Origin: a virus
IMG/VR virus record: IMGVR_UViG_3300020446_000009
Span: 4,560-68,559 of that record
Length of the DNA stretch: 64,000 nt
Reading direction: 5' to 3' (one strand)
In this document: piece by piece, positions 26,595 to 42,781 of the stretch
How positions within the stretch are numbered: the first letter of the stretch is position 1
Layout: the number at the start of each line of letters is the position of its first letter
Position numbers and translations under genes: made by a program
Notes under the pieces: model-generated
What the model was told of the DNA's origin: nothing
Databases searched by the model: none
What the model saw: the letters and a program-made list of their open reading frames with translations, nothing else

Positions 26595-29327
26595 TTAATC
26601 TGTTCTTAAATAATAAGTTACCCCATCAACCATACTAACACCCGAAACTGATATGTAAGCAAATCTTTCAGGGGTAATAGTAGATCCAGTTCCATTATTA
26701 TCCACATATGAGTTTGATAAACTTAAAGTAGCTGACCATCTTCCTTCTTGTCCTAAACTATTAGTAATAACTTTGTTTGAAAATGATGTAGATCCTGGAT
26801 CAGTACCACTACTAGAAGAAATTGCCATAAAAAATCCAAAAGAATTTGTAATAAATTGAGTTAGAAGTAAATGATTAACATTTCCAGCTCCTCTTAATCC
26901 TTGTCCTAATACAACTACAGGAAATCCTCCACCAAGATAAGCACAATCAGTTCCCGATAAATTTACCATTGTAGTTGTTGGGCCTAATCCTTGACCATAT
27001 ACATTCCAAGCAGGGTTACAAGGAATTGATGCATCAGCAAAAATACTTCCATGGTGGAATCCTGGTTGAATACCATTTGTTTGTTGGAATAACCCAGGGG
27101 CAGTGTAAGTTGATCTCCAAAATATGGTTCCTGCCCTAAATACCCAACCATTAAATCCAATAAAATTATTATAATCCTCACATGCTTGGTTAATATTATA
27201 TTGTGTGGTTCCTAAATTCATTAGGTAAAGTCCAGATGTAGGAGATGGAGTTGTAAGGGTCCCTACATTAACAGGTGGGGGTGTTGGTGGAGATGTAGGT
27301 GGTTGAGTTGGAGGGAAAATAACTCCAGGAGTAGCACCCGTACAATTTCCTAAAAATGTTACACTTGCTCCAGGAGTATTTATTGTTGGTTTAACACGTG
27401 TACAAACTGGATCTGTATCCCCACCATCTACACTTCTAGTTTGGGTATTACCATCACAATCAATATAACTAAATGTAGATACTGCGTCATGTTTAGCTTC
27501 TAATTCATATTCATAACAAGTAAATCCTAAACAAATTGGATCATTACAATTACCTCCTACTACAACTCCTGCAATATCATAAGGAACTGCATTGGTAGAA
27601 GTACCAGTAATTGTACCACATATTGTAGTACCAAAAAGTTCAAATTTTATAAGGTCTCCATTACTATAGGGTCCTGCATATTGATCATTTGTAGTAACAT
27701 GATATGTACCACCTCCACTACAACCACTTATTTCATATTTGTAAATAGTAGTTCCTGTTGGAGCAGGAGTTGGGGGTACAGTTGGAGCAGGAGTTGGTGG
27801 GTTTGGAGTATCACAAGTACCACTTGCTCCAAAAAACTGCCCATCCCAATATCTCCAATTATTACCTAAACTTATATATTGTGCGGGAACCGAACCTAAT
27901 GGGGGTATTGCATTATAATATACATTATTAGCTAATGTCCAATCGGCATTATCAAAATATAATCTTTGTTTAAAAACTGTAGTTCCAGGGGAATTTCTTG
28001 TACAAGCAGCATCGGCAGTATCTCCTTGATAAACATCAGTCTCTGTAAGATCAGAATCATATCCACATGTAATTATAACATTAACAGCATCACTTATAGG
28101 ATCAGATGGGTCAGCTGCCCCACCATAAACTCGTATTTGTCTACCTGTGGAAGAATTATAATCAAAATTATCTCTTTTTAAACTTAAATCATTTAATCTA
28201 TTACCCCATGGACCACTATAATTAGCAAAACCCATCCATCCTGAATCATAAACTGTACCACTATCATCTATTACAGTAACTCTATTAGGTCTTTCAAATG
28301 ATTCAATTTGAATACGATTGGCATATTGAGTATCTGAAGAAGGTATATCTACAGGATCATAAATTATATAGTTCATACTAGAACTATAAAAATCTAAATG
28401 AGAACTAGAGGTACAACTGTAAGTTCTATTAGTTGATGATATAGGTGCTGGAGTAGGTGGTCTAGTAGGTGGTGAAGTTGGAGGTGGAGTTGGTGGTCCT
28501 GTAGGAGGAGATGTAGGAGGTGGGGTAGGTGCATCATATATATTATTATCTGAACTACAAGGACCTAAATTTTCTATTACTACATCTTGATTTACAGTTA
28601 AATTATTTTGATCCTGACAAAATGTTATATTGGGCATGTACTCAATATTAAAATAACCAGACCCATGAGCTCGGGTTGGGGTATCAGAAGAACAAACTTC
28701 CATAGCATAATCAGGGAAAACTTCGGTTTCAAGTGTTGCTCCCGTTAAACAATCAGTATGACTTACATATAAAGAATCAGTTAAATCATAATTTTCAACA
28801 TAAAAAGTGTGACAAGGTAATTGATAACTACTAGTTATACCTTGAGCAGTTCCATCTTTAGCACAAAAAGGACCAAAGGTCCCAAATTTACCTATTTGTT
28901 CTACTCTATATGAACCATCAGTAGCAGTACATGGTACATATCTTACTTGACCATCATTACCATTATTATCATATGCTCTATATATAGTACAAGGTTCAGC
29001 AGTAACCGGTGCAGGAGTAGGAGCTTGAGTTGGTGGTGATGTAGGTGGTGAAGTTGGTGGATCAGGAGTTGAAACAGGAGCAGGTGTAGGAGCAGGGGTT
29101 ACAGGATAATTTCTATATTGTATAGATTCTGATACATGGCTTAAACTAGTTATATAACCAGCAAAATCGGGGTCAAAAAATTCTTGATCTGAATTAGATA
29201 TTAAACCAGTAAATGTGGTTTGTCCATCAACATTATCTCCTCCTTGTTTAATACCTCCAGCAATAGATTTTTCATCATCCGCTGATGATGAGTACATATC
29301 AAAATTTCCTCCTACTGGTACACCCAT
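26595..29327 (-). CDS. Large Pro/Thr-linker, Cys-rich modular virion protein (fibre/adhesin)
   Basis: Four PTxPPT tracts separating Cys-rich beta modules; follows an S74-type fibre gene. Confidence 0.75.
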   Translation of the reverse strand: MGVPVGGNFDMYSSSADDEKSIAGGIKQGGDNVDGQTTFTGLISNSDQEFFDPDFAGYITSLSHVSESIQYRNYPVTPAPTPAPVSTPDPPTSPPTSPPTQAPTPAPVTAEPCTIYRAYDNNGNDGQVRYVPCTATDGSYRVEQIGKFGTFGPFCAKDGTAQGITSSYQLPCHTFYVENYDLTDSLYVSHTDCLTGATLETEVFPDYAMEVCSSDTPTRAHGSGYFNIEYMPNITFCQDQNNLTVNQDVVIENLGPCSSDNNIYDAPTPPPTSPPTGPPTPPPTSPPTRPPTPAPISSTNRTYSCTSSSHLDFYSSSMNYIIYDPVDIPSSDTQYANRIQIESFERPNRVTVIDDSGTVYDSGWMGFANYSGPWGNRLNDLSLKRDNFDYNSSTGRQIRVYGGAADPSDPISDAVNVIITCGYDSDLTETDVYQGDTADAACTRNSPGTTVFKQRLYFDNADWTLANNVYYNAIPPLGSVPAQYISLGNNWRYWDGQFFGASGTCDTPNPPTPAPTVPPTPAPTGTTIYKYEISGCSGGGTYHVTTNDQYAGPYSNGDLIKFELFGTTICGTITGTSTNAVPYDIAGVVVGGNCNDPICLGFTCYEYELEAKHDAVSTFSYIDCDGNTQTRSVDGGDTDPVCTRVKPTINTPGASVTFLGNCTGATPGVIFPPTQPPTSPPTPPPVNVGTLTTPSPTSGLYLMNLGTTQYNINQACEDYNNFIGFNGWVFRAGTIFWRSTYTAPGLFQQTNGIQPGFHHGSIFADASIPCNPAWNVYGQGLGPTTTMVNLSGTDCAYLGGGFPVVVLGQGLRGAGNVNHLLLTQFITNSFGFFMAISSSSGTDPGSTSFSNKVITNSLGQEGRWSATLSLSNSYVDNNGTGSTITPERFAYISVSGVSMVDGVTYYLRTD

Positions 29328-29328
29328 T

Positions 29329-30318
29329 TTATCCCAATTTAGTTTCTATAGCTTTAATACGTTCTTCTAGTTCTAATATTGCCTTATGCATATGAGCTAA
29401 TACTGGTCTATCGTTCATAGTTAAATGTCCATTATCATCAGTAAATACTGCATAAGGTAAAACTTCTTGAACTTCTTGAGCTATAAAACCAGCATCAGGT
29501 TTATTATCTTTTATGTATTCGTAGGCAGTGAATTCTTTTAATGTTTTTAATCCTTCTCCAATTTCAGTAATTTGAGATTTTAATTTTTTATCAGAGGTTG
29601 TTATAAAGTTAGTAGCAGTGACAGTTGAAGAAGCTACTATAGTACCTGCATTTGTTGATGGAGATGTACCTACCCCTAAACAGTGAGATTGTAAATGGCT
29701 AGTAAATTGTGAAGTACCTGTTCCGGTTACTGTAAGTAATCCTCCAACATCTACACCATGAGTTGTTTCTATACTACCTGTAGATAATATAGTATATGTA
29801 TTTCCTGCTAATGAAGAGGTTACTACCATATCATTAGTAGTAGTATTTCCTCTATTTGTAACCATTTGAAGATTATCCTCAGAAGCAGTATAAGAAGCTT
29901 CTACTGAAGATAAAATGGCATAACCTGAGGTACCTTGGGGGAAATTAATTATTGCTGTATCTGCTGTTGGGAAAGAAATATCTTCTGTTAAAACTACATC
30001 ATAATTAGAATCAACAATAGTTACATTTAGGGGTCTAGTATTTAAGTTATGTGTTATATTCCATACACTACTAGCTACATTTTGGATGTGTTGATAACCT
30101 CCAGCATCCGTTCTTACATTAGTAAAAACATTTCCACTACCATCTACAACGAGAGCAGTTGTTGAATTTGAAGCAGATAAATTTATGAATTGAGCGTTAG
30201 ACGAAGTTAGTGAGCCTGTTATATCTACACTACTTGTAACGGTTAAACCGTTTGTTACATCTAAACTATTTAAAGCGGCATCACTTCCGGATATGATGAC
30301 CTTTTTCCAACTTGGCAT
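29329..30318 (-). CDS. Tail fibre protein with C-terminal S74-like chaperone
   Basis: WNITHNLN fibre motif, NLQMVTNRGNTTT, TTSDKKLKSQI...GFIAQEVQEVLPYAV...AILELEERI. Confidence 0.8.
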   Translation of the reverse strand: MPSWKKVIISGSDAALNSLDVTNGLTVTSSVDITGSLTSSNAQFINLSASNSTTALVVDGSGNVFTNVRTDAGGYQHIQNVASSVWNITHNLNTRPLNVTIVDSNYDVVLTEDISFPTADTAIINFPQGTSGYAILSSVEASYTASEDNLQMVTNRGNTTTNDMVVTSSLAGNTYTILSTGSIETTHGVDVGGLLTVTGTGTSQFTSHLQSHCLGVGTSPSTNAGTIVASSTVTATNFITTSDKKLKSQITEIGEGLKTLKEFTAYEYIKDNKPDAGFIAQEVQEVLPYAVFTDDNGHLTMNDRPVLAHMHKAILELEERIKAIETKLG

Positions 30319-30328
30319 ATTAACAATT

Positions 30329-30381
30329 TATTATGGTTGGTTACAGGATTGCCTGCCCACTTCCCTTACGGGCCTATAATA
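30329..30381 (-). ncRNA. Candidate structured cis-regulatory RNA (three-way junction) in the 5' UTR
   Basis: TATTATAGG-CCC GTAA GGG-AAG-TGG GCAGG CAAT CCTGT AA CCA-A-CC ATAATA: three complementary stems and a GNRA loop, GC-rich in an AT-rich genome. Confidence 0.5.
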
Positions 30382-30398
30382 TACTCATAAATATGAAT

Positions 30399-30430
30399 AA
30401 AAAAGAGCTAACTATCAAGCTAACTCTTCT
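30399..30430 (-). terminator. Intrinsic terminator overlapping the stop of 30420..30773
   Basis: AAGAGTTAGCT-TGAT-AGTTAGCTCTT stem followed by a T-run on the minus strand. Confidence 0.6.
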
Positions 30431-30773
30431 TTTTTTGATCTTTTTCAAGAAACCTATATTGGTTTTGAAGCTTTAAGGTAACTTGGAAAACATGCTCCAA
30501 TTGACCACCTTTGAAATTGGCTTCTTTTATAAAGTGGAGTAAAAACATTAATTCCTGTTCATCTAAAGAATTTTTATTTTTACTTGAAAGGATAGAAAGT
30601 CTTTCTTTTAAAATTCTAACATCCTCATTTAATTTATTAACCGTAGATTGAAGTTTTTGAGAATTTTCTACTAAAAGTTCTTTGTGTCTTTCCCATGATA
30701 TGGATGGTGAAGCTTGCTCCACCATCCAATCTGGAATATTCCCAATTTCAACATTTTTTGCCTTGAAACCCAT
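30420..30773 (-). CDS. Small coiled-coil protein, possible fibre assembly chaperone
   Basis: Charged helical 117 aa ORF between fibre genes. Confidence 0.5.
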   Translation of the reverse strand: MGFKAKNVEIGNIPDWMVEQASPSISWERHKELLVENSQKLQSTVNKLNEDVRILKERLSILSSKNKNSLDEQELMFLLHFIKEANFKGGQLEHVFQVTLKLQNQYRFLEKDQKKKS

Positions 30774-30795
30774 TTGAATTAAACATAATTAAAAA

Positions 30796-32142
30796 TTATG
30801 AATATATCCAAATGTCTTCACTATCACCGGCAACATATAGGTTACCTTTTTTATTATACCTAGCACCTGGGTCATTAGCACCATTTGGATCATTTCCATT
30901 AGTATTAATAGCCGCTGCCATAAATGCATCTGGTGTAAAGGCATTTTGGGAAGCATCAAATGAAGCATCTACACCAAATCGAGTTGTAGCTGCATCAAAT
31001 CCGAAGCATTCACCATCTGTTGCACCAGTTTGTTGTATTACAATACCACCATCTCCTGTTGAAGTTGATCCAGAGGCTAATCTGATAAATCTATCAGCTA
31101 CATCTAAATCTTCTGTGTGTTGGAATGAGGCAGTACCTAATACTGTTAAGTTTCTAGAAATTGTAGCATCTCTAGTAACTGTTAAATCTTGTCCAATTGT
31201 TACATCATCTGGTAATCCAATTGTTACAGTATCAGCTGTTGCTGTACTAACTTCAACTTCATTAGCTGTTCCAGAGAATGTTAATGTTTCAGTTAATAGA
31301 TTAACTGCTTGAGCATTTGAACCATCAGTTAAATTTAACGTGGTTGCTATTCCTGTTAATCCACTACCATCACCAGTAAATGAACCAGTAAATGAACCAG
31401 TAGCATCTGTAATAGTTTGAAGTCTAGTAACTGTATCTCCTAAATTAACTACTGTTGTACCTAATGTAATGGTAGAGTTTTGTAATTTAGCATTTGTGAT
31501 ACCAGAATCTTTTACTTGAAGACTATCAGTAGCAATTTCGATTGTAGAATCATCTACATTTGCTGTAACAGTTAATGTTTGGTTAGCACCTGCGGTAGTA
31601 ATACCTGCTCCACCAGCAATAGTAAATGTTTGAGAATCTAAATCTACTGCACCTGTTCCTGAATCACCTGAAAAGTCTAAATCTTCTTGTGATATTTGGT
31701 TATCAACATAAGCAGTTGTGGCTACTTTAGTCGAGTTATCACCTGCAGTTTGTGTGGTTGCTGTTGTACCATCCGCTATGGATCCAGTAAATGAGCCTGT
31801 ATACCCAGTTATATTTAATTGGGTTACTGTATCTCCTAAGGATACATCATCACCACCAAATGTTATACCGTCATTGGCTAATGAGGAATTAGGTACAGCA
31901 CTTAAACTAAAGTTTAAGGTATCCGTTCCAGCATTAGCAGTCATTAATAACCCAGCTCCTGACGAAGAGGCAAAGGTTAAATTTCCTTGTGAATCGTTTG
32001 CAAGTAATTCCGTGCTCAAGAATGAAGCAGTAGAGAATGAATTTCCTGCTGCTGGTACCTGTGATGCACTTATATATCCTGAGTCATTATTTAACTGAGA
32101 TATATTACTACCCGAAACGACGAGTTTTTTCCAAGTTGCCAT
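30796..32142 (-). CDS. Tail fibre protein
   Basis: MATWKKLVVSGS start, DNSTKVATTAYV, VDDSTIE, ITNAKL, VTIGLPDDVTI fibre motifs. Confidence 0.75.
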   Translation of the reverse strand: MATWKKLVVSGSNISQLNNDSGYISASQVPAAGNSFSTASFLSTELLANDSQGNLTFASSSGAGLLMTANAGTDTLNFSLSAVPNSSLANDGITFGGDDVSLGDTVTQLNITGYTGSFTGSIADGTTATTQTAGDNSTKVATTAYVDNQISQEDLDFSGDSGTGAVDLDSQTFTIAGGAGITTAGANQTLTVTANVDDSTIEIATDSLQVKDSGITNAKLQNSTITLGTTVVNLGDTVTRLQTITDATGSFTGSFTGDGSGLTGIATTLNLTDGSNAQAVNLLTETLTFSGTANEVEVSTATADTVTIGLPDDVTIGQDLTVTRDATISRNLTVLGTASFQHTEDLDVADRFIRLASGSTSTGDGGIVIQQTGATDGECFGFDAATTRFGVDASFDASQNAFTPDAFMAAAINTNGNDPNGANDPGARYNKKGNLYVAGDSEDIWIYS

Positions 32143-32205
32143 TGAGAATAATTGTTTTTAGTTAATTAAATAAAATTTTATATCGATTATACGTATTCAT
32201 AACCT

Positions 32206-33351
32206 TTAATCTAATGCAGCCCAAACTGAAGAAGATTGAAAGTAAAGTCCTCCATAGTCTGCAGTTGCAGAAGGTGATGGGGCATCTATATTTGCAAAAA
32301 ATTGTGCTACACCCTCTGAGTTAATTTTAAAAGCATCATAACTAGCAGAATTAACTACAAAAAAGTCAAGATTTGATGCTGTTTGAGTTACTAAAAGTGA
32401 TCCTGTAATGCGAACATCCCTAGAAGAAGTTAAAAATGTTGATCCTATATACCAATCATCATCACCTCCACTACCACCTTCAATAACTATATTAACACCC
32501 TCTTTACCAAAGCTTTCGGTTAAAGTAATATCTTGTATTCCTGAACCTGTAAAATTAACAAATTGGGTATTTCCTTTAGTATATGATCCTGTGTATAAAA
32601 CATCAAGACCTATATCATCTAAAAATTCTTGTACTGCTATTTGATAAGCTCCTACTTCATAACCACCAGCAGGAGTTCCTGCTACGTTTTGGTTAAAAAT
32701 AGTAGCTAAAGAAGAGCTATAAGATAGTTCTACTATAGCAAATGATGTAATACCAGATGAAGCTGCTTTATCATCCTCTTCTGCTAATATTCCATTAGCA
32801 CTACTAGTTATATAAAATGAAGCTTGTTGGGTATTTTGCCTATTTTGTACTCTACTAATTTCATATTGTGCAAACTCACCTGAGATACCACTTGATAATG
32901 AAGCAGTAGATGCTTGAAGTAATAGTACTCCAAATTTATTATCAGTAGGAAGATAATTAGAATCTTCACTACCTGTAATATTATTAAAATTAATTGGGTT
33001 ATTTGTAGGTGAAGTTAATGACCCAGAATTAATAAAATATTGTCCTTTAGGAGGGCTAACTCTACCTAATCTATTAGTTCCTGTAGCTGAAGGAACGGCA
33101 TCTACTTCAATAGTATTATTACCAAGATCAACAGATACAATAGTTACACCCGAAGGAAAGTTTGAAGATGCTATTAATTGTTGACCAGGAATTATATCAT
33201 TAGCACCAAAATATCCACTAACATCTACAACATTAGTTAATGTTGTTGAACTGGTATCACAATCAAATCTTATCCTTATAAAGGAATTAGTACCATTAGC
33301 AAATATAGTGGCGTTATCTATTGCGCCATAAAACAATCGGTCTTGAGCCAT
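32206..33351 (-). CDS. Virion structural protein (tail/fibre-associated)
   Basis: Beta-rich, Ser/Thr-rich, NFTGSG and ITGSL motifs shared with fibres. Confidence 0.55.
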   Translation of the reverse strand: MAQDRLFYGAIDNATIFANGTNSFIRIRFDCDTSSTTLTNVVDVSGYFGANDIIPGQQLIASSNFPSGVTIVSVDLGNNTIEVDAVPSATGTNRLGRVSPPKGQYFINSGSLTSPTNNPINFNNITGSEDSNYLPTDNKFGVLLLQASTASLSSGISGEFAQYEISRVQNRQNTQQASFYITSSANGILAEEDDKAASSGITSFAIVELSYSSSLATIFNQNVAGTPAGGYEVGAYQIAVQEFLDDIGLDVLYTGSYTKGNTQFVNFTGSGIQDITLTESFGKEGVNIVIEGGSGGDDDWYIGSTFLTSSRDVRITGSLLVTQTASNLDFFVVNSASYDAFKINSEGVAQFFANIDAPSPSATADYGGLYFQSSSVWAALD

Positions 33352-33365
33352 CTACAATTATATTT

Positions 33366-35405
33366 TTAGAATAATTGAGCCTTTACAATAATTGGAGAGA
33401 AATTGTCTATTCCCGTTATTTTTAATATATTATAATTGCTACCTAAATTCCATTGTTGATTTATTGTTGGGATATTACCAGAATTACCTGTACCTGTAGC
33501 ACTAATACCTGAAATATTGGCTACATTAATACCCGTTTTGCTTCCAAACGTTCCAGCTCCTTCTTGTGTACCCGCAGGTAATGTCACTTGCATTGGAGCT
33601 GATTCCTGATTATCAGCATATATTAACAACCCGTGTAGTTGGCAACTACCACTTAAAGCACCTGGTGCTGTAATTGATATTGCAGTTACATCTCCACTAT
33701 TATCTGTAACACTGGCGCTAAATGCAGGAACGTATGCTGCACTATCACCCGCAGTTCCTCCTGTTGAATCAACATCTAATGTAAATGTATCCGCATCTGA
33801 TACGGCAACAGCAGAATATTTGTAATCCTGATTAGCATTACGAACCATTACACAATCACCATTACTTAGACCATGGCTAGTACTAGTTACAGTAAGTGTA
33901 GTACCTGATCTAGTCCATGATTTACTTCCAAAATAATCACCAGTAGAAGTTAATTCTAATCTATGAGTAGAATTTGATGAAGCAACATATCTCATAGCAG
34001 TATTATATACTACATCTACTCCTCCACCACCACCTTCAAGTGTTACTGTGACTCCTGATCCCGAAGTTACAACATCTGCAACACCTGAACCTGTAAAATT
34101 AATTCCATCTATGTTTGTAGCTACAGTACTACCACTTTGTTGTACTAATACTGCGGACCCATCAATTCCAGATGTACCTGAAGTTCCGGATGTACCAGAA
34201 GTACCACTTGTTCCAGAAGTACCATCTGCTCCATCAGTAGCAGAGGTTCCAGATGTACCTGAAGTTCCGGATGTACCAGAAGTACCACTTGTACCCGATG
34301 TTCCACTTGTACCTGATGTACCATCAATACCCGAAGTACCAGAAGTACCAGAAGTACCATCTACGGCTGAAGTACCACTTGTACCTGATGTACCTGTTGT
34401 TCCACTTGTGCCTGAAGTACCTGAAGTACTATCTACACCTGAAGTACCAGATGTTCCATCTGTAGCAGAAGTTCCAGATGTACCGGATGTTCCATCTGTA
34501 GCAGAAGTTCCACTTGTTCCCGAAGTACCAGAAGTACCAGATGTACCTGAAGTACCAGATGTTCCACTTGTTCCCGAAGTACCATCAATTCCTGAAGTAC
34601 CATCTTCTCCAGATGTACCAGAAGTACCAGAAGTACCATCTATAGCTGATGTGCCTGAAGTACCGGATGTACCATCATTTGAAACACCTGAGCTACCACT
34701 TGTTCCTGAAGTACCGGATGTACTATCAACTCCAGATGTTCCTGAAGTCCCGTCTGTAGCAGAAGTTCCGCTTGTACCAGATGTACCATCAATTGCGGAT
34801 GTACCACTTGTTCCTGAAGTACCATCATTTGAAACTCCCGAGGTACCACTTGTACCTGAAGTACTATCTACACCTGAAGTTCCAGATGTACCAGCATCTC
34901 CTGAGGTTCCAGAAGTACCATCTACGGCTGAAGTACCACTTGTACCTGATGTACCAGATGCTCCATCATTACCATCTACTCCTGAAGTACCAGATGTACC
35001 AGCAGTAGCTGAAGTACCAGAAGTACCATCCACTCCAGATGTACCATTTGCTCCATTAGATCCATTTACACCTGATGTTCCTGAGGTTCCAGCCGCCCCA
35101 GCTGCTCCATCATTACCACTTGTTCCACTTGTTCCCGAGGTACCAGCAGATCCTCCTCCACCTCCATAAGAACCAGTAAAATGTAATTCTCCCGTAGAAG
35201 TATCAACCATTACTGTTTTATATGCAGTATTAGAATTTTCTGCTATTGTTGGATTTTTAAGAGATCCAGTTACAACAAGAGAACCTGAAATTGTTATATC
35301 GTAATCTTCAGCTCCAGTTAGGGCATCTACAGACTGGGAGACGTGCCATGACTGTATTGTAGCCCCTTGGACTATTTGTGATTCATAATTAAGTACTTTG
35401 GCCAT
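33366..35405 (-). CDS. Tail fibre with collagen-like Gly-Thr-Ser repeat stalk
   Basis: About 330 aa of GTS/GxD triplets between globular ends. Confidence 0.8.
34150..35150 (-). repeat. 9-bp-period coding minisatellite encoding (GTS)n
   Basis: Degenerate gaagtacca/gatgtacct/cttgttcca units on the plus strand. Confidence 0.85.
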
Positions 35406-41000: not shown

Positions 41001-42781
41001 GCAGGTGGACCTACGGGTTGAGATCCTGATCCATAAGAGCCACTAGAATAATTTTGTTCTCCATATCCTGCTTCTATAGAACCAGTAGAAGTAACAATAT
41101 AAGTTTTAAAAGGTCTATGTAAAAATCTATTATATTTATAAAAATTTCCATTCCCCGTTCCTACAGTTGCTAATCCTCTATATAACCATAATGATTGAGA
41201 TTCTTTTACTGGTATATTAAATCCTTCTGGGGTACTATATGTTGTAGGGGTAGCATTTATATTTACTAATTCTACATTAAATAAAGGATCAAAATTAGGA
41301 TTTGCAGTTTTTTTAGTATCTAAATTGCTGCCACCTCTAATTACAATTTGATTTGTATCTTCTTTATAATAATAAATTAATTCATCTCCACCCGATGTTA
41401 CAAAAGCAGGACCTATTTGAGTCAAGTTAGTTTGAGCAGAATATGATATAAAACTTGAAGATGGGATTGCTACATAACTAGCTGAGGCGTTAATGAAGAA
41501 TGGAGGAGTTGAAGGTTGATATGTAGCAGATCCATCTTTATCTCTTTCTGTTGAACCTGAATAAAAGGCTTGTAAAGGATCATCTAATGTACCCCCAGTA
41601 GAAATTAGTGTTCCATTAACATAATAATTAGCTCCAGCCCAACCTCTAAAAAATTGTTCTGTTGGATATGAAGTAGATGAAGATGGGAAATAACCTTGAG
41701 GTATAGATTTATCAATACCTGTGGCTAATGTTGGTTGTACTACAGTACCTGAAGAGGAAGCATACACAACATAATCTCCTGTTGCCAGGAAAGTATCAGT
41801 TACATCTGCTGGTCTATTAGTATCAGTAGCAAAAGAAGTTAATTTTGATTCTTGATTTACAAATAAATGACTATAATTTTGAGTACTATATTTAGTAACA
41901 TTAAATAATTGATAATCCTCAGCATAATGCCCACTTCCATTGTGAATAAAGCTACCTGTAGAATTAATTGGGTTATACATTACAAATCGTGCCCATTCTG
42001 AATGTTTAATAAAATCACTTAATATAGCACCAGTGGATGACACATTATTCATTTTAATGTGTTTTACTTTAAATCCATCATTCCATAACCATGCATATCC
42101 AGCACTAGAAGGATAATAATTAGCTCCTATAAAAGTAGATTCAGGAACACCCCAATCAATATTAAATGGTTTTGGAATTGAACCAGTTGAAGGTGTACCA
42201 AAAGACCCAGAAGAAGCTACTATATATTTTGTTGAGCTCCCAGTAACATCTGTTTCATGATAACCTCTTAAATCACTACCATTAAATGTAGCAATAAGGG
42301 GTTTTCTAGTAGTAAAAGATGAAGTGCTATGGGCATAACTTTGAGAAATAGGATTATTAGCATCTCCAGATGGAACATTACCAGTACCACTAGAAGCGCT
42401 TACTATCATATAAGTTAAACTAGAACCAGTGTGTATACTATCTATATTATAGTCTATAAAATATGATGAACTACCACTTACTTCTAATCTAAGAGTACCT
42501 TTACTATTTAAATCATCAAGTTGGGTTAAAAAACTTATTATAGATTCTTTATTATTTATATCATCTTCATCTAAGTAAATTTCAGTAGCACTTACTTCAT
42601 TCGTTGTACTACCTGGAAGTAAACTACCACTATTTAATCTTATATCACCAGCTCCGGGTGCTACTGAGGATGTTAAATAATCAAATCTATAGTTAAAATT
42701 AGCAGACCCACTATAAAATCCAAAAATTTTATTTGATCTTGAAAGATTTTGTAACGCAAAGTAGTAATCTTGTACTGCCAT
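38072..42781 (-). CDS. Large virion structural protein (baseplate/fibre associated)
   Basis: 1569 aa, beta-rich, Ser/Thr-rich, inside the baseplate operon, late motif upstream. Confidence 0.6.
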   Translation of the reverse strand: MAVQDYYFALQNLSRSNKIFGFYSGSANFNYRFDYLTSSVAPGAGDIRLNSGSLLPGSTTNEVSATEIYLDEDDINNKESIISFLTQLDDLNSKGTLRLEVSGSSSYFIDYNIDSIHTGSSLTYMIVSASSGTGNVPSGDANNPISQSYAHSTSSFTTRKPLIATFNGSDLRGYHETDVTGSSTKYIVASSGSFGTPSTGSIPKPFNIDWGVPESTFIGANYYPSSAGYAWLWNDGFKVKHIKMNNVSSTGAILSDFIKHSEWARFVMYNPINSTGSFIHNGSGHYAEDYQLFNVTKYSTQNYSHLFVNQESKLTSFATDTNRPADVTDTFLATGDYVVYASSSGTVVQPTLATGIDKSIPQGYFPSSSTSYPTEQFFRGWAGANYYVNGTLISTGGTLDDPLQAFYSGSTERDKDGSATYQPSTPPFFINASASYVAIPSSSFISYSAQTNLTQIGPAFVTSGGDELIYYYKEDTNQIVIRGGSNLDTKKTANPNFDPLFNVELVNINATPTTYSTPEGFNIPVKESQSLWLYRGLATVGTGNGNFYKYNRFLHRPFKTYIVTSTGSIEAGYGEQNYSSGSYGSGSQPVGPPANEFETVYIAYSSSLANERPTDGVYTFDTTPLEELQITASVNFGYTSINVIRSSSYGTGSYGDNEFEYGGTGSGDDVNTWQSATLKLYQNNNVIASDVTSINSTNILYGLESTLKTTLQPYEISIGDNLRLAVEVGNESSNFNSSLIVNNYTMSFGNLVYPAQDLVPVTFNNYLELNDDCDPINNNVFGQRPNERLQDVDYSVDVLNPINFDQIIKDEAVRATVPESHYTQLGSSFARYIGSSTSRRQINEYNPNDDVDSTNSFYYQADISTPEIVNKGKGSPLGKIPNVQLRNSYIAYFNKIIDTYPNLNGKTAYYVKYLIDESGTIYDPTLSDINFSLFEKTFQLYDYDAKPTRVKTSLQSIEEAKELSRLNKGLSSTFKLGKYPSPILYSQTSSLGHTNNIIMSGSPFYGTLGIGSGFTNLAVNINAAQSNSDFPVASTNNDTEDLTVGNQLTTASFASGDITPFTTNTTPNLPTGSAASTLLFPLDSAAITPNTLGADLSDKYEVDGEFIFYSSTFPARYRRPNGSSKHWQKGDLYTSRQSKDKYRQIANVTLAPFIKVPTNPSEVFVANSNNFEISQITLTPIENAGLSDESVYKTLTIEPSPSGFDRQYYISNNQIEFKPDSRYLEKIIIQQIYGNSDWSSDSTNRKEAQVLIGGGWYNDGQGNIGIDGANVVYKWSIKFKLKNVKQGSGMFLKVKGQITQPGDSGRNDDFFRSYIRDGDYIKNGPSWRTTFNPGLTSGYNTSPVLKYNITSPIANSDQNVNGAVGPYWRRISGTTDMLFMSSSILNQAYGIFDEDGNNTNGQYYVQAKIPYVGDTEVVFPSTIEPDFVEFDPVVDPWSLEIGDEIRFENNEDLVYTITSAGGKQGVRPPIDPYSTNPENDGLHITIAPPFEYTSSNGDIINKQPTNLDFFVVRRYKENRNFIILDQQKPYGFPVSASSSPGILLPEHRIEKYDRNPDEVLKDLIEKRII

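Follow-up and report, generated by a model that had tools for sequence, protein, structure and literature searches.

The tail-fibre gene of the virus analysed here is preceded by a compact three-way-junction RNA which, judged by comparison of homologous leaders, is real, is conserved beyond chance and is a member of a new RNA family. We hold with moderate confidence that this element is a cis-acting translational operator of the putatively late fibre mRNA, and that it is probably bound by a protein.

The fibre locus and its leader RNA

The window (the whole stretch of DNA that was analysed, 64 kb out of a 68.6-kb IMG/VR virus record with an estimated completeness of 47%) is AT-rich, and its minus strand holds all of the ORFs of the examined 27000-34000 region as well as those behind the promoter-like box described below. 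The 329-aa ORF downstream of the junction encodes a tail fibre, as a Peptidase_S74 domain at its C-terminus (Pfam, E 6.3e-10) and numerous PHROG tail-fibre matches show. The 910-aa ORF that follows it contains several Pro/Thr linker runs and many Cys residues, found no match in Pfam and PHROG searches, and may be a distal adhesin; it probably shares a transcript with the fibre gene, and the two ORFs together would make the transcript headed by the junction RNA at least 3.7 kb long. A second structural gene (30796-32142, minus, start at 32142) has a paralogous N-terminus, MATWKKLVVSGS, of the MATWKK type, and no structured leader of the junction type lies upstream of it. At 33366-35405 (minus) lies the gene of a collagen-like tail-fibre protein of 679 aa (Pfam Collagen, E 6e-36) that contains long triplet repeats of the GTS type. 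The features of the locus are collected in Table 1.

Table 1. Features of the fibre locus and elements of its leader RNA (positions in the window)
Feature	Position	Strand	Remarks
Tail-fibre gene	29329..30318	minus	329 aa; N-terminus MPSWKKVIISGS; C-terminal Peptidase_S74 intramolecular chaperone
910-aa ORF, Pro/Thr- and Cys-rich	26595..29327	minus	starts 2 nt past the fibre stop
117-aa helical protein	30420..30773	minus	in 36 of 37 distinct loci a family member adjoins the motif on its upstream side
Intrinsic-terminator-like hairpin and T run	30399..30432	minus	15 pairs; ends the upstream small-protein gene
ATATTTAT promoter-like box	30387..30394	minus	5 nt upstream of P1
Three-way-junction RNA	30329..30381	minus	53 nt; covariance-model match and covariation
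P1, UAUUAU with AUAAUA	30381-30376 with 30334-30329	minus	bulged A at 30375
GG/CC pairs	30374-30373 with 30336-30335	minus	
P2 hairpin, CCC-GUAA-GGG	30372-30363	minus	
J2/3, AAG	30362-30360	minus	
P3 outer part, UGG with CCA	30359-30357 with 30340-30338	minus	AA bulge 30342-30341
P3 inner part, GCAGG-CAAU-CCUGU	30356-30343	minus	G.U pair 30356/30343
J3/1, A	30337	minus	
Linker	30319..30328	minus	10 nt from P1 to the start codon; A/U-rich, without Shine-Dalgarno
ATATTTAT(A) boxes before ORFs	4858, 9965, 17999, 18040, 18619, 26299, 30394, 35430, 38072, 42801, 51440, 56455	minus	

The first-pass annotation had drawn a three-stem junction at these positions, ending 10 nt before the ATG. Its sequence, coordinates and stems are as described there: the minimum-free-energy fold of the 53-nt element is exactly that junction (-14.9 kcal/mol), the RNAalifold consensus of 77 leaders and the covariation analysis agree with it, and positions 30328-30319 lie between P1 and the ATG (30318-30316). 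The stability of the single sequence does not stand out from that of shuffled versions (z = -0.60, with 49 of 200 shuffles equally good or better), so the thermodynamics of the lone sequence cannot support the fold, and its support is entirely comparative.

Conservation and covariation

Used as a query against viral contigs, the fibre protein led to 77 loci, and at every locus that matches from residue 1 of the protein the 130 nt upstream shows the same fold with visibly compensating changes. The covariance model R1 (57 positions, 18 pairs) matches all 41 loci whose protein match begins at residue 1, at 46-69.6 bits, and gives no match at any of the three loci that match the fibre protein only internally. 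In a protein-anchored set of 25 distinct rows, chosen without regard to RNA sequence though fitted to model R1, 97.3% of the cells are paired, as opposed to 31-51% when the partners are slid; nine of the 18 pairs have double-sided changes, the covariation score is 0.368, and none of 500 shuffles reaches the observed values. The AAG of J2/3 and the A of J3/1 are invariant in all 25 of these rows, and the two bulge A's are kept in 24 and 20 of them.

A larger set of 77 distinct leaders, which was partly gathered by RNA sequence patterns so that some of its columns are invariant by construction, returns the same junction under RNAalifold, with 18 pairs of which 10 have compensatory changes. Among its 1447 cells 95.0% pair (27-50% with slid partners), there are 200 double-sided changes where the slid controls have 20-32, and the score for covariation reaches 0.366, with the controls at or below 0.10; again none of 500 shuffles reaches the observed values. 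All of the helices contribute: P1 switches from UAUUAU/AUAAUA to UGUUGU/ACAACA, GG/CC becomes GA/UC in 10 rows, P2 changes from CCC/GGG to CCU/AGG, and P3 from UGG/CCA to UAG/CUA in five rows. The conserved wobble pair is G.U in 69 of the 77 leaders, A-U in the other eight, and G-C in none. The doubt that homologous leaders might lack conservation or covariation is thus answered by the presence of both, in favour of the motif.

Two details of the earlier description fared differently in this wider comparison. The statement that one strand only can form the fold extends from the single G-U pair noticed in the window to the family: 123 of the 1447 cells are G.U and the opposite strand would pair only 86.5%, and the fold therefore belongs to the mRNA strand. 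The GNRA tetraloop is present in P2 of the window, but it is not a trait of the family, since the loop is GNRA in 36 of the 77 members only; an obligatory tetraloop contact made from P2 is ruled out by the same count. A pairing between CCAA of the leader and UUGG at the Trp codon of the fibre gene was rejected as well, for by eye the five members whose P3 has the UAG/CUA form cannot keep it, because Trp has a single codon.

Gene specificity, copy number and carriers

A protein-blind scan of viral contigs with RNA patterns returned at least 115 stretches, and R1 was run on 100 of these loci. Among the matches listed, 49 are clear members (47.3 bits or more) and the remainder score 19.4 bits or less. 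Of these 49 listed members 45 precede an MPxWKK ORF, two an MPNWNK ORF and two another ORF, so that an MPxW(K/N)K fibre ORF directly follows the motif in 47 of the 49 members among the matches listed. A stricter pattern applied to 185,579 prokaryote genomes gave eight matches; three are genuine (55.9-59.5 bits) and lie on 8-23 kb MAG contigs before MP[SN]WKK ORFs, and the other five were set aside as chance matches in GC-rich DNA. In the window the sole strong R1 match is at 30328-30382 (71.8 bits, E 1.6e-21); a possible second copy at 41885-41952 (14.5 bits, E 0.085) is probably a chance match. The motif occurs exactly once in each of ten other viral records, 15-160 kb in length. The fibre proteins of the carriers are 43-89% identical across their first 26-74 residues only, and the fibre bodies downstream of this are unrelated.

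When the leader was compared by blastn with 50,697 phage records, four records of one phage, Flavobacterium phage vB_FspM_immuto, were the only ones matched. Immuto is the only cultured carrier found among these records; its motif lies between genes 218 and 219, and gene 219 is annotated as a "putative tail fiber-like protein".

This distribution bears on the idea that the junction is a riboswitch, in which a small molecule or ion would bind it and a ligand-stabilised P1 would gate fibre initiation. The element does look like a structured aptamer with an invariant core: about 25 of the 57 model positions, all unpaired junction bases among them, reach a conservation of 90% or more in spite of the divergence of the proteins (43-89%). 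Moreover, the fold is closed beside the start site by a weak, A/U-rich P1, which in 14 of the 77 leaders is overlapped by a Shine-Dalgarno-like run. Nevertheless, every occurrence of the motif precedes an MPxW(K/N)K fibre ORF or an endonuclease insert ahead of one, and none precedes metabolic or transport genes; the motif has no genuine match in a bacterial chromosome context (the three genuine prokaryote-collection matches are those on MAG contigs before fibre ORFs), and no Rfam riboswitch matches it. We consider a riboswitch unlikely, and less likely than a protein-bound operator since the genes behind the motif are never metabolic ones. The only ligand for which the carriers themselves offered a hint was a 7-deazaguanine, which was considered because the immuto report (PMC10516641) describes complete replacement of G by fdPreQ1 in the phage DNA. 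QueC of the 7-deazaguanine pathway is present in three of ten motif-bearing records (immuto itself, G001, and G004 and G005) and absent from a carrier that is 96% complete, a distribution that does not support a 7-deazaguanine or preQ-type ligand. A search with the Pfam TGT model carries no weight here, as it gave no match even in immuto, which according to that report (PMC10516641) has DpdA3.

Comparison with known RNA families

The first-pass annotation could not match the junction to any RNA known to it. The Infernal/Rfam scan that it proposed bears this out: cmscan with Rfam 15 over 29800-30900 of the window (E <= 10) gave four weak matches, none of which lies over the junction (the nearest ends at 30385), and the same scan of seven other members (E <= 5) gave nothing on the motif. 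The passages returned by full-text literature searches describe no fibre-leader RNA, and the main-text terms of two motif surveys (PMC5737381 and PMC2864571) include no tail-fibre motif, their supplements being places where candidates outside Rfam may be listed. By these searches, the element is a new RNA family, absent from Rfam.

Its closest functional parallels would be the translational operators of other phages, such as the pseudoknot in the T4 gene 32 leader, the targets of T4 gp43 and RegA, the MS2 coat-protein hairpin and the autoregulation of the P22 scaffolding protein. Like these, the motif is a short structured RNA by the start codon of one phage gene, gene-specific and present in single copy, and it would give a structural or assembly protein a means of feedback on synthesis. 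It differs from them in being a junction rather than a hairpin or pseudoknot, in having no sequence or model similarity to them, in that its binders are candidates only, and in preceding a tail-fibre gene; we know of no operator for such a gene. The operators of ribosomal protein S15 include the E. coli rpsO pseudoknot, which acts by "entrapment", and the three-way-junction mimics of Thermus and Geobacillus. The present motif shares with them a compact fold immediately 5' of the AUG and a conserved G.U recognition feature, and it would likewise dock on the 30S platform; however, it has G.U/C-G after an AA bulge in place of a G.U/G-C tandem, it matches no Rfam leader family, and the gene it precedes is not a ribosomal one. 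The T4 late genes 25 and 38 have structured ribosome-binding regions in which simple hairpins join a split Shine-Dalgarno and AUG. These too are RNA structures that lie before a late baseplate or tail-fibre gene and shape initiation, whereas here a conserved junction lies upstream of a start site that mostly has no Shine-Dalgarno (53 of 77 leaders).

Among small junction aptamers, the purine, SAM-III/SMK box and c-di-GMP-II types resemble the motif in their size (50-90 nt), in a conserved junction core with variable distal stems, and in a closing P1 that adjoins the start site. The motif is unlike them in that its J1/2 is zero nt long, no pseudoknot or kink-turn is evident and there is no link to a metabolic gene; the joining strands of purine aptamers are far longer than its own. 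The c-di-GMP-II riboswitch has a pseudoknot plus kink-turn architecture. This family (RF01786) was rejected, being absent from both cmscans, and the fold that covariation supports is a plain three-way junction. The hammerhead ribozyme is a three-way junction whose conserved core strands are CUGANGA and GAAA, and the motif recalls it in having three helices, two of them joined by a GAA-like run, and just one base ahead of the closing stem. It was also rejected: CUGANGA is absent, P1/GG passes directly into P2 with zero nt in between, and no Rfam ribozyme matches.

Promoter-like box and start-site spacing

The junction had been placed between a terminator plus late promoter on one side and the fibre start on the other, and the terminator-like hairpin (30432-30399) and a recurring box (30394-30387) are indeed there. 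The ATATTTAT sequence is not over-represented in the window as a whole (28 observed, 22.9 expected). An ORF begins no more than 120 nt downstream of 12 of its 17 coding-strand copies, in nine of these cases at 7-23 nt; on the other strand this holds for none of its 11 copies. The promoter half of the earlier label is thus borne out by a promoter-like box that recurs before 12 coding-strand ORFs, and the epithet "late" is presumptive. Since the box mostly stands 7-23 nt before ORF starts, most genes would have very short leaders; from the box to the ATG of the fibre gene there are 68 nt, filled by the junction. Three of the 12 genes behind the box have fibre-type matches, namely this fibre, a 1462-aa protein and the collagen-like fibre. 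In 45 of the 77 leaders of the family, 4-9 nt lie between the end of the box and P1, and the others have different upstream sequences.

The spacing downstream of the junction is also conserved, with 6-13 nt from P1 to the ATG in 63 of the 77 leaders. Shine-Dalgarno-like runs overlap the 3' strand of P1 in 14 leaders, lie free downstream of it in 10 and are absent from 53; with 10 free and 53 lacking, a general mechanism in which P1 simply masks the ribosome-binding site is ruled out. The stretch from the motif to the ATG contains no terminator, the sole one being that upstream at 30432-30399, and the element is not a transcription attenuator or terminator-type leader.

The position of the box allows a simpler role, that of a stabiliser, in which the paired 5' end would shield the long fibre transcript from 5'-end-dependent decay and no regulatory partner would be needed. 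It is well established that 5'-terminal stem-loops stabilise bacterial mRNAs, and a box 4-9 nt before P1 in 45 of 77 leaders would put P1 at the very 5' end of an mRNA of at least 3.7 kb. A protective hairpin, however, needs neither a three-way junction nor invariant unpaired bases nor a wobble pair that is never G-C, and the other genes behind the ATATTTAT box have no such leader; we think this role improbable. A put-like antitermination RNA, which would modify the transcribing RNA polymerase for read-through of the long fibre operon, would suit an element that is the first RNA after the promoter and heads a multi-gene unit. It seems to us very unlikely, as terminator-like sites downstream are at chance level (eight found, 6.0 expected) and a polymerase-modifying role makes the tight conserved spacing to the AUG unnecessary.

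A subfamily with a long P2 (L091, L095, L109, L125, L128, L142 and similar loci) has 5-9 pairs in P2, and its P2 loop, UGGC(A/G)A, is conserved. The box upstream resembles AATAAC and not ATATTTAT, so P1 may not be at the 5' end there, and an AAGGAG run overlaps the 3' strand of P1. A blastn search with a leader of this type found no match in the phage records.

A putative translational operator

The mechanism we favour for the operator would run as follows. Transcription from the ATATTTAT box would start at or a few nt from P1, to judge by the spacing, and the first RNA made would be the compact junction, with about 10 nt between the end of its 3' strand and the AUG. That strand would fall inside the region that a 30S subunit must occupy; the size of the 30S footprint is textbook knowledge, and the distances of 10 nt in the window and 6-13 nt in 63 of the 77 leaders indeed place the structure within the ribosome-occupied start region. 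A trans-acting factor, most likely a protein, would recognise the invariant unpaired AAG, AA and A together with the conserved G.U pair, and its binding would hold the leader closed or docked, so that initiation is throttled and fibre synthesis is matched to need. We infer the effect on translation and the existence of a binding partner; the structure, conservation, placement and absence from Rfam are observed. A specific reader of the folded core is suggested because of the position of the motif, its invariant unpaired bases, a wobble that is never G-C, its single copy and its link to one gene family. That it sets fibre stoichiometry is plausible, and fits both its position and its tie to one gene family.

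The candidates for the factor are the unassembled fibre, acting through its co-conserved N-terminus, and the small helical protein encoded next to the motif. The latter is a candidate by virtue of its co-location. Its family has an invariant E, G and K and the core LsxxEIxFLxxxLxxxxIxGxxAxxxxxLQxKL, and its model is confidently all-helical (pLDDT 80.6). It has no Pfam family and no Atlas match, a fold search of the PDB gave no match at E <= 0.001, and no RNA-binding fold is recognisable in it. Phage-encoded ribosomal protein S21 was considered as a partner and rejected, since it was found in none of five records while the controls gave matches. A broader formulation, to which we give tentative credence, is that the motif represents a new class of regulatory RNA gating fibre translation, which either senses a signal directly or is bound by unassembled fibre through the MPxWKK N-terminus.

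Tail fibres determine which hosts a phage infects, and the Shine-Dalgarno sequence is largely unused in Bacteroidetes-type hosts. To our knowledge almost nothing is known of how tail-fibre synthesis is controlled outside T4, or of translation-start regulation in phages of Bacteroidetes-type hosts. If the broader formulation is right, no structured operator of a tail-fibre gene would have been known before this one, and it would offer a handle on initiation control in Bacteroidetes-type phages, whose hosts' ribosomes mostly ignore the Shine-Dalgarno. An RNA with an invariant core is retained before otherwise freely swapped fibre genes in many uncultured aquatic phages, and its function is directly testable in a cultured system, Flavobacterium phage immuto and Flavobacterium sp. 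LMO8. The motif would also add a well-supported family to the RNA catalogues, and it marks a conserved DNA block that is apparently targeted by homing endonucleases.

Conservation of the DNA block and homing endonucleases

Two loci carry an endonuclease gene between the motif and the fibre ORF. In L208 a 241-aa NUMOD1-type endonuclease (766-1491, minus; NUMOD1 E 4.3e-13, with a GIY-YIG match under its cut-off) is wedged there, and in L210 an 81-aa HNH endonuclease (1247-1492, minus; 22.4 bits, cut-off 21.4) occupies the same place. Both inserts are free-standing and lie exactly between the RNA motif and the fibre ORF, and the displaced fibre ORFs start behind AAGGAG-type sites of their own, one of them with a TTG start codon. 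These insertions suggest that the conserved block of box, motif and first codons has an additional role as a homing target.

Metatranscriptome contigs show how narrowly the conservation is confined to this block. In one marine library, X4, two contigs from other phages match the window only at 30329-30393, which comprises the promoter box and the motif, and the block must therefore be far better conserved than its flanks. The X4 contigs of relatives cover the motif, but as contigs only, with DNA carry-over possible and no start or strand readable; in three further marine metatranscriptomes (X1-X3) near-identical copies of the phage (mostly 99% or more), again seen as contigs only, cover neighbouring genes and not the motif. 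These contigs hint weakly at transcription of the motif region in a marine RNA library, and they do not establish that the region is transcribed at all.

It might be argued from such data that the conservation acts at the DNA level, with box, motif and first codons forming a recombination arm for swapping fibre cassettes and a homing-endonuclease target, and that the fold is incidental. An endonuclease gene exactly between motif and fibre ORF in two of the 49 members among the matches listed, the two contigs confined to 30329-30393 and the unrelated fibre bodies downstream in different carriers are all in keeping with this, but compensatory changes in all three helices and 123 strand-specific G.U pairs are not expected of a homology arm. 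As the sole explanation we regard it as highly improbable; a DNA-level function may exist as a role added beside that of the RNA.

The HNH ORF of L210 retains the first three codons of the fibre gene (MPN). The gene order seen in the window, MATWKK gene, small protein, motif and MPxWKK fibre, is also found in L208 and L210.
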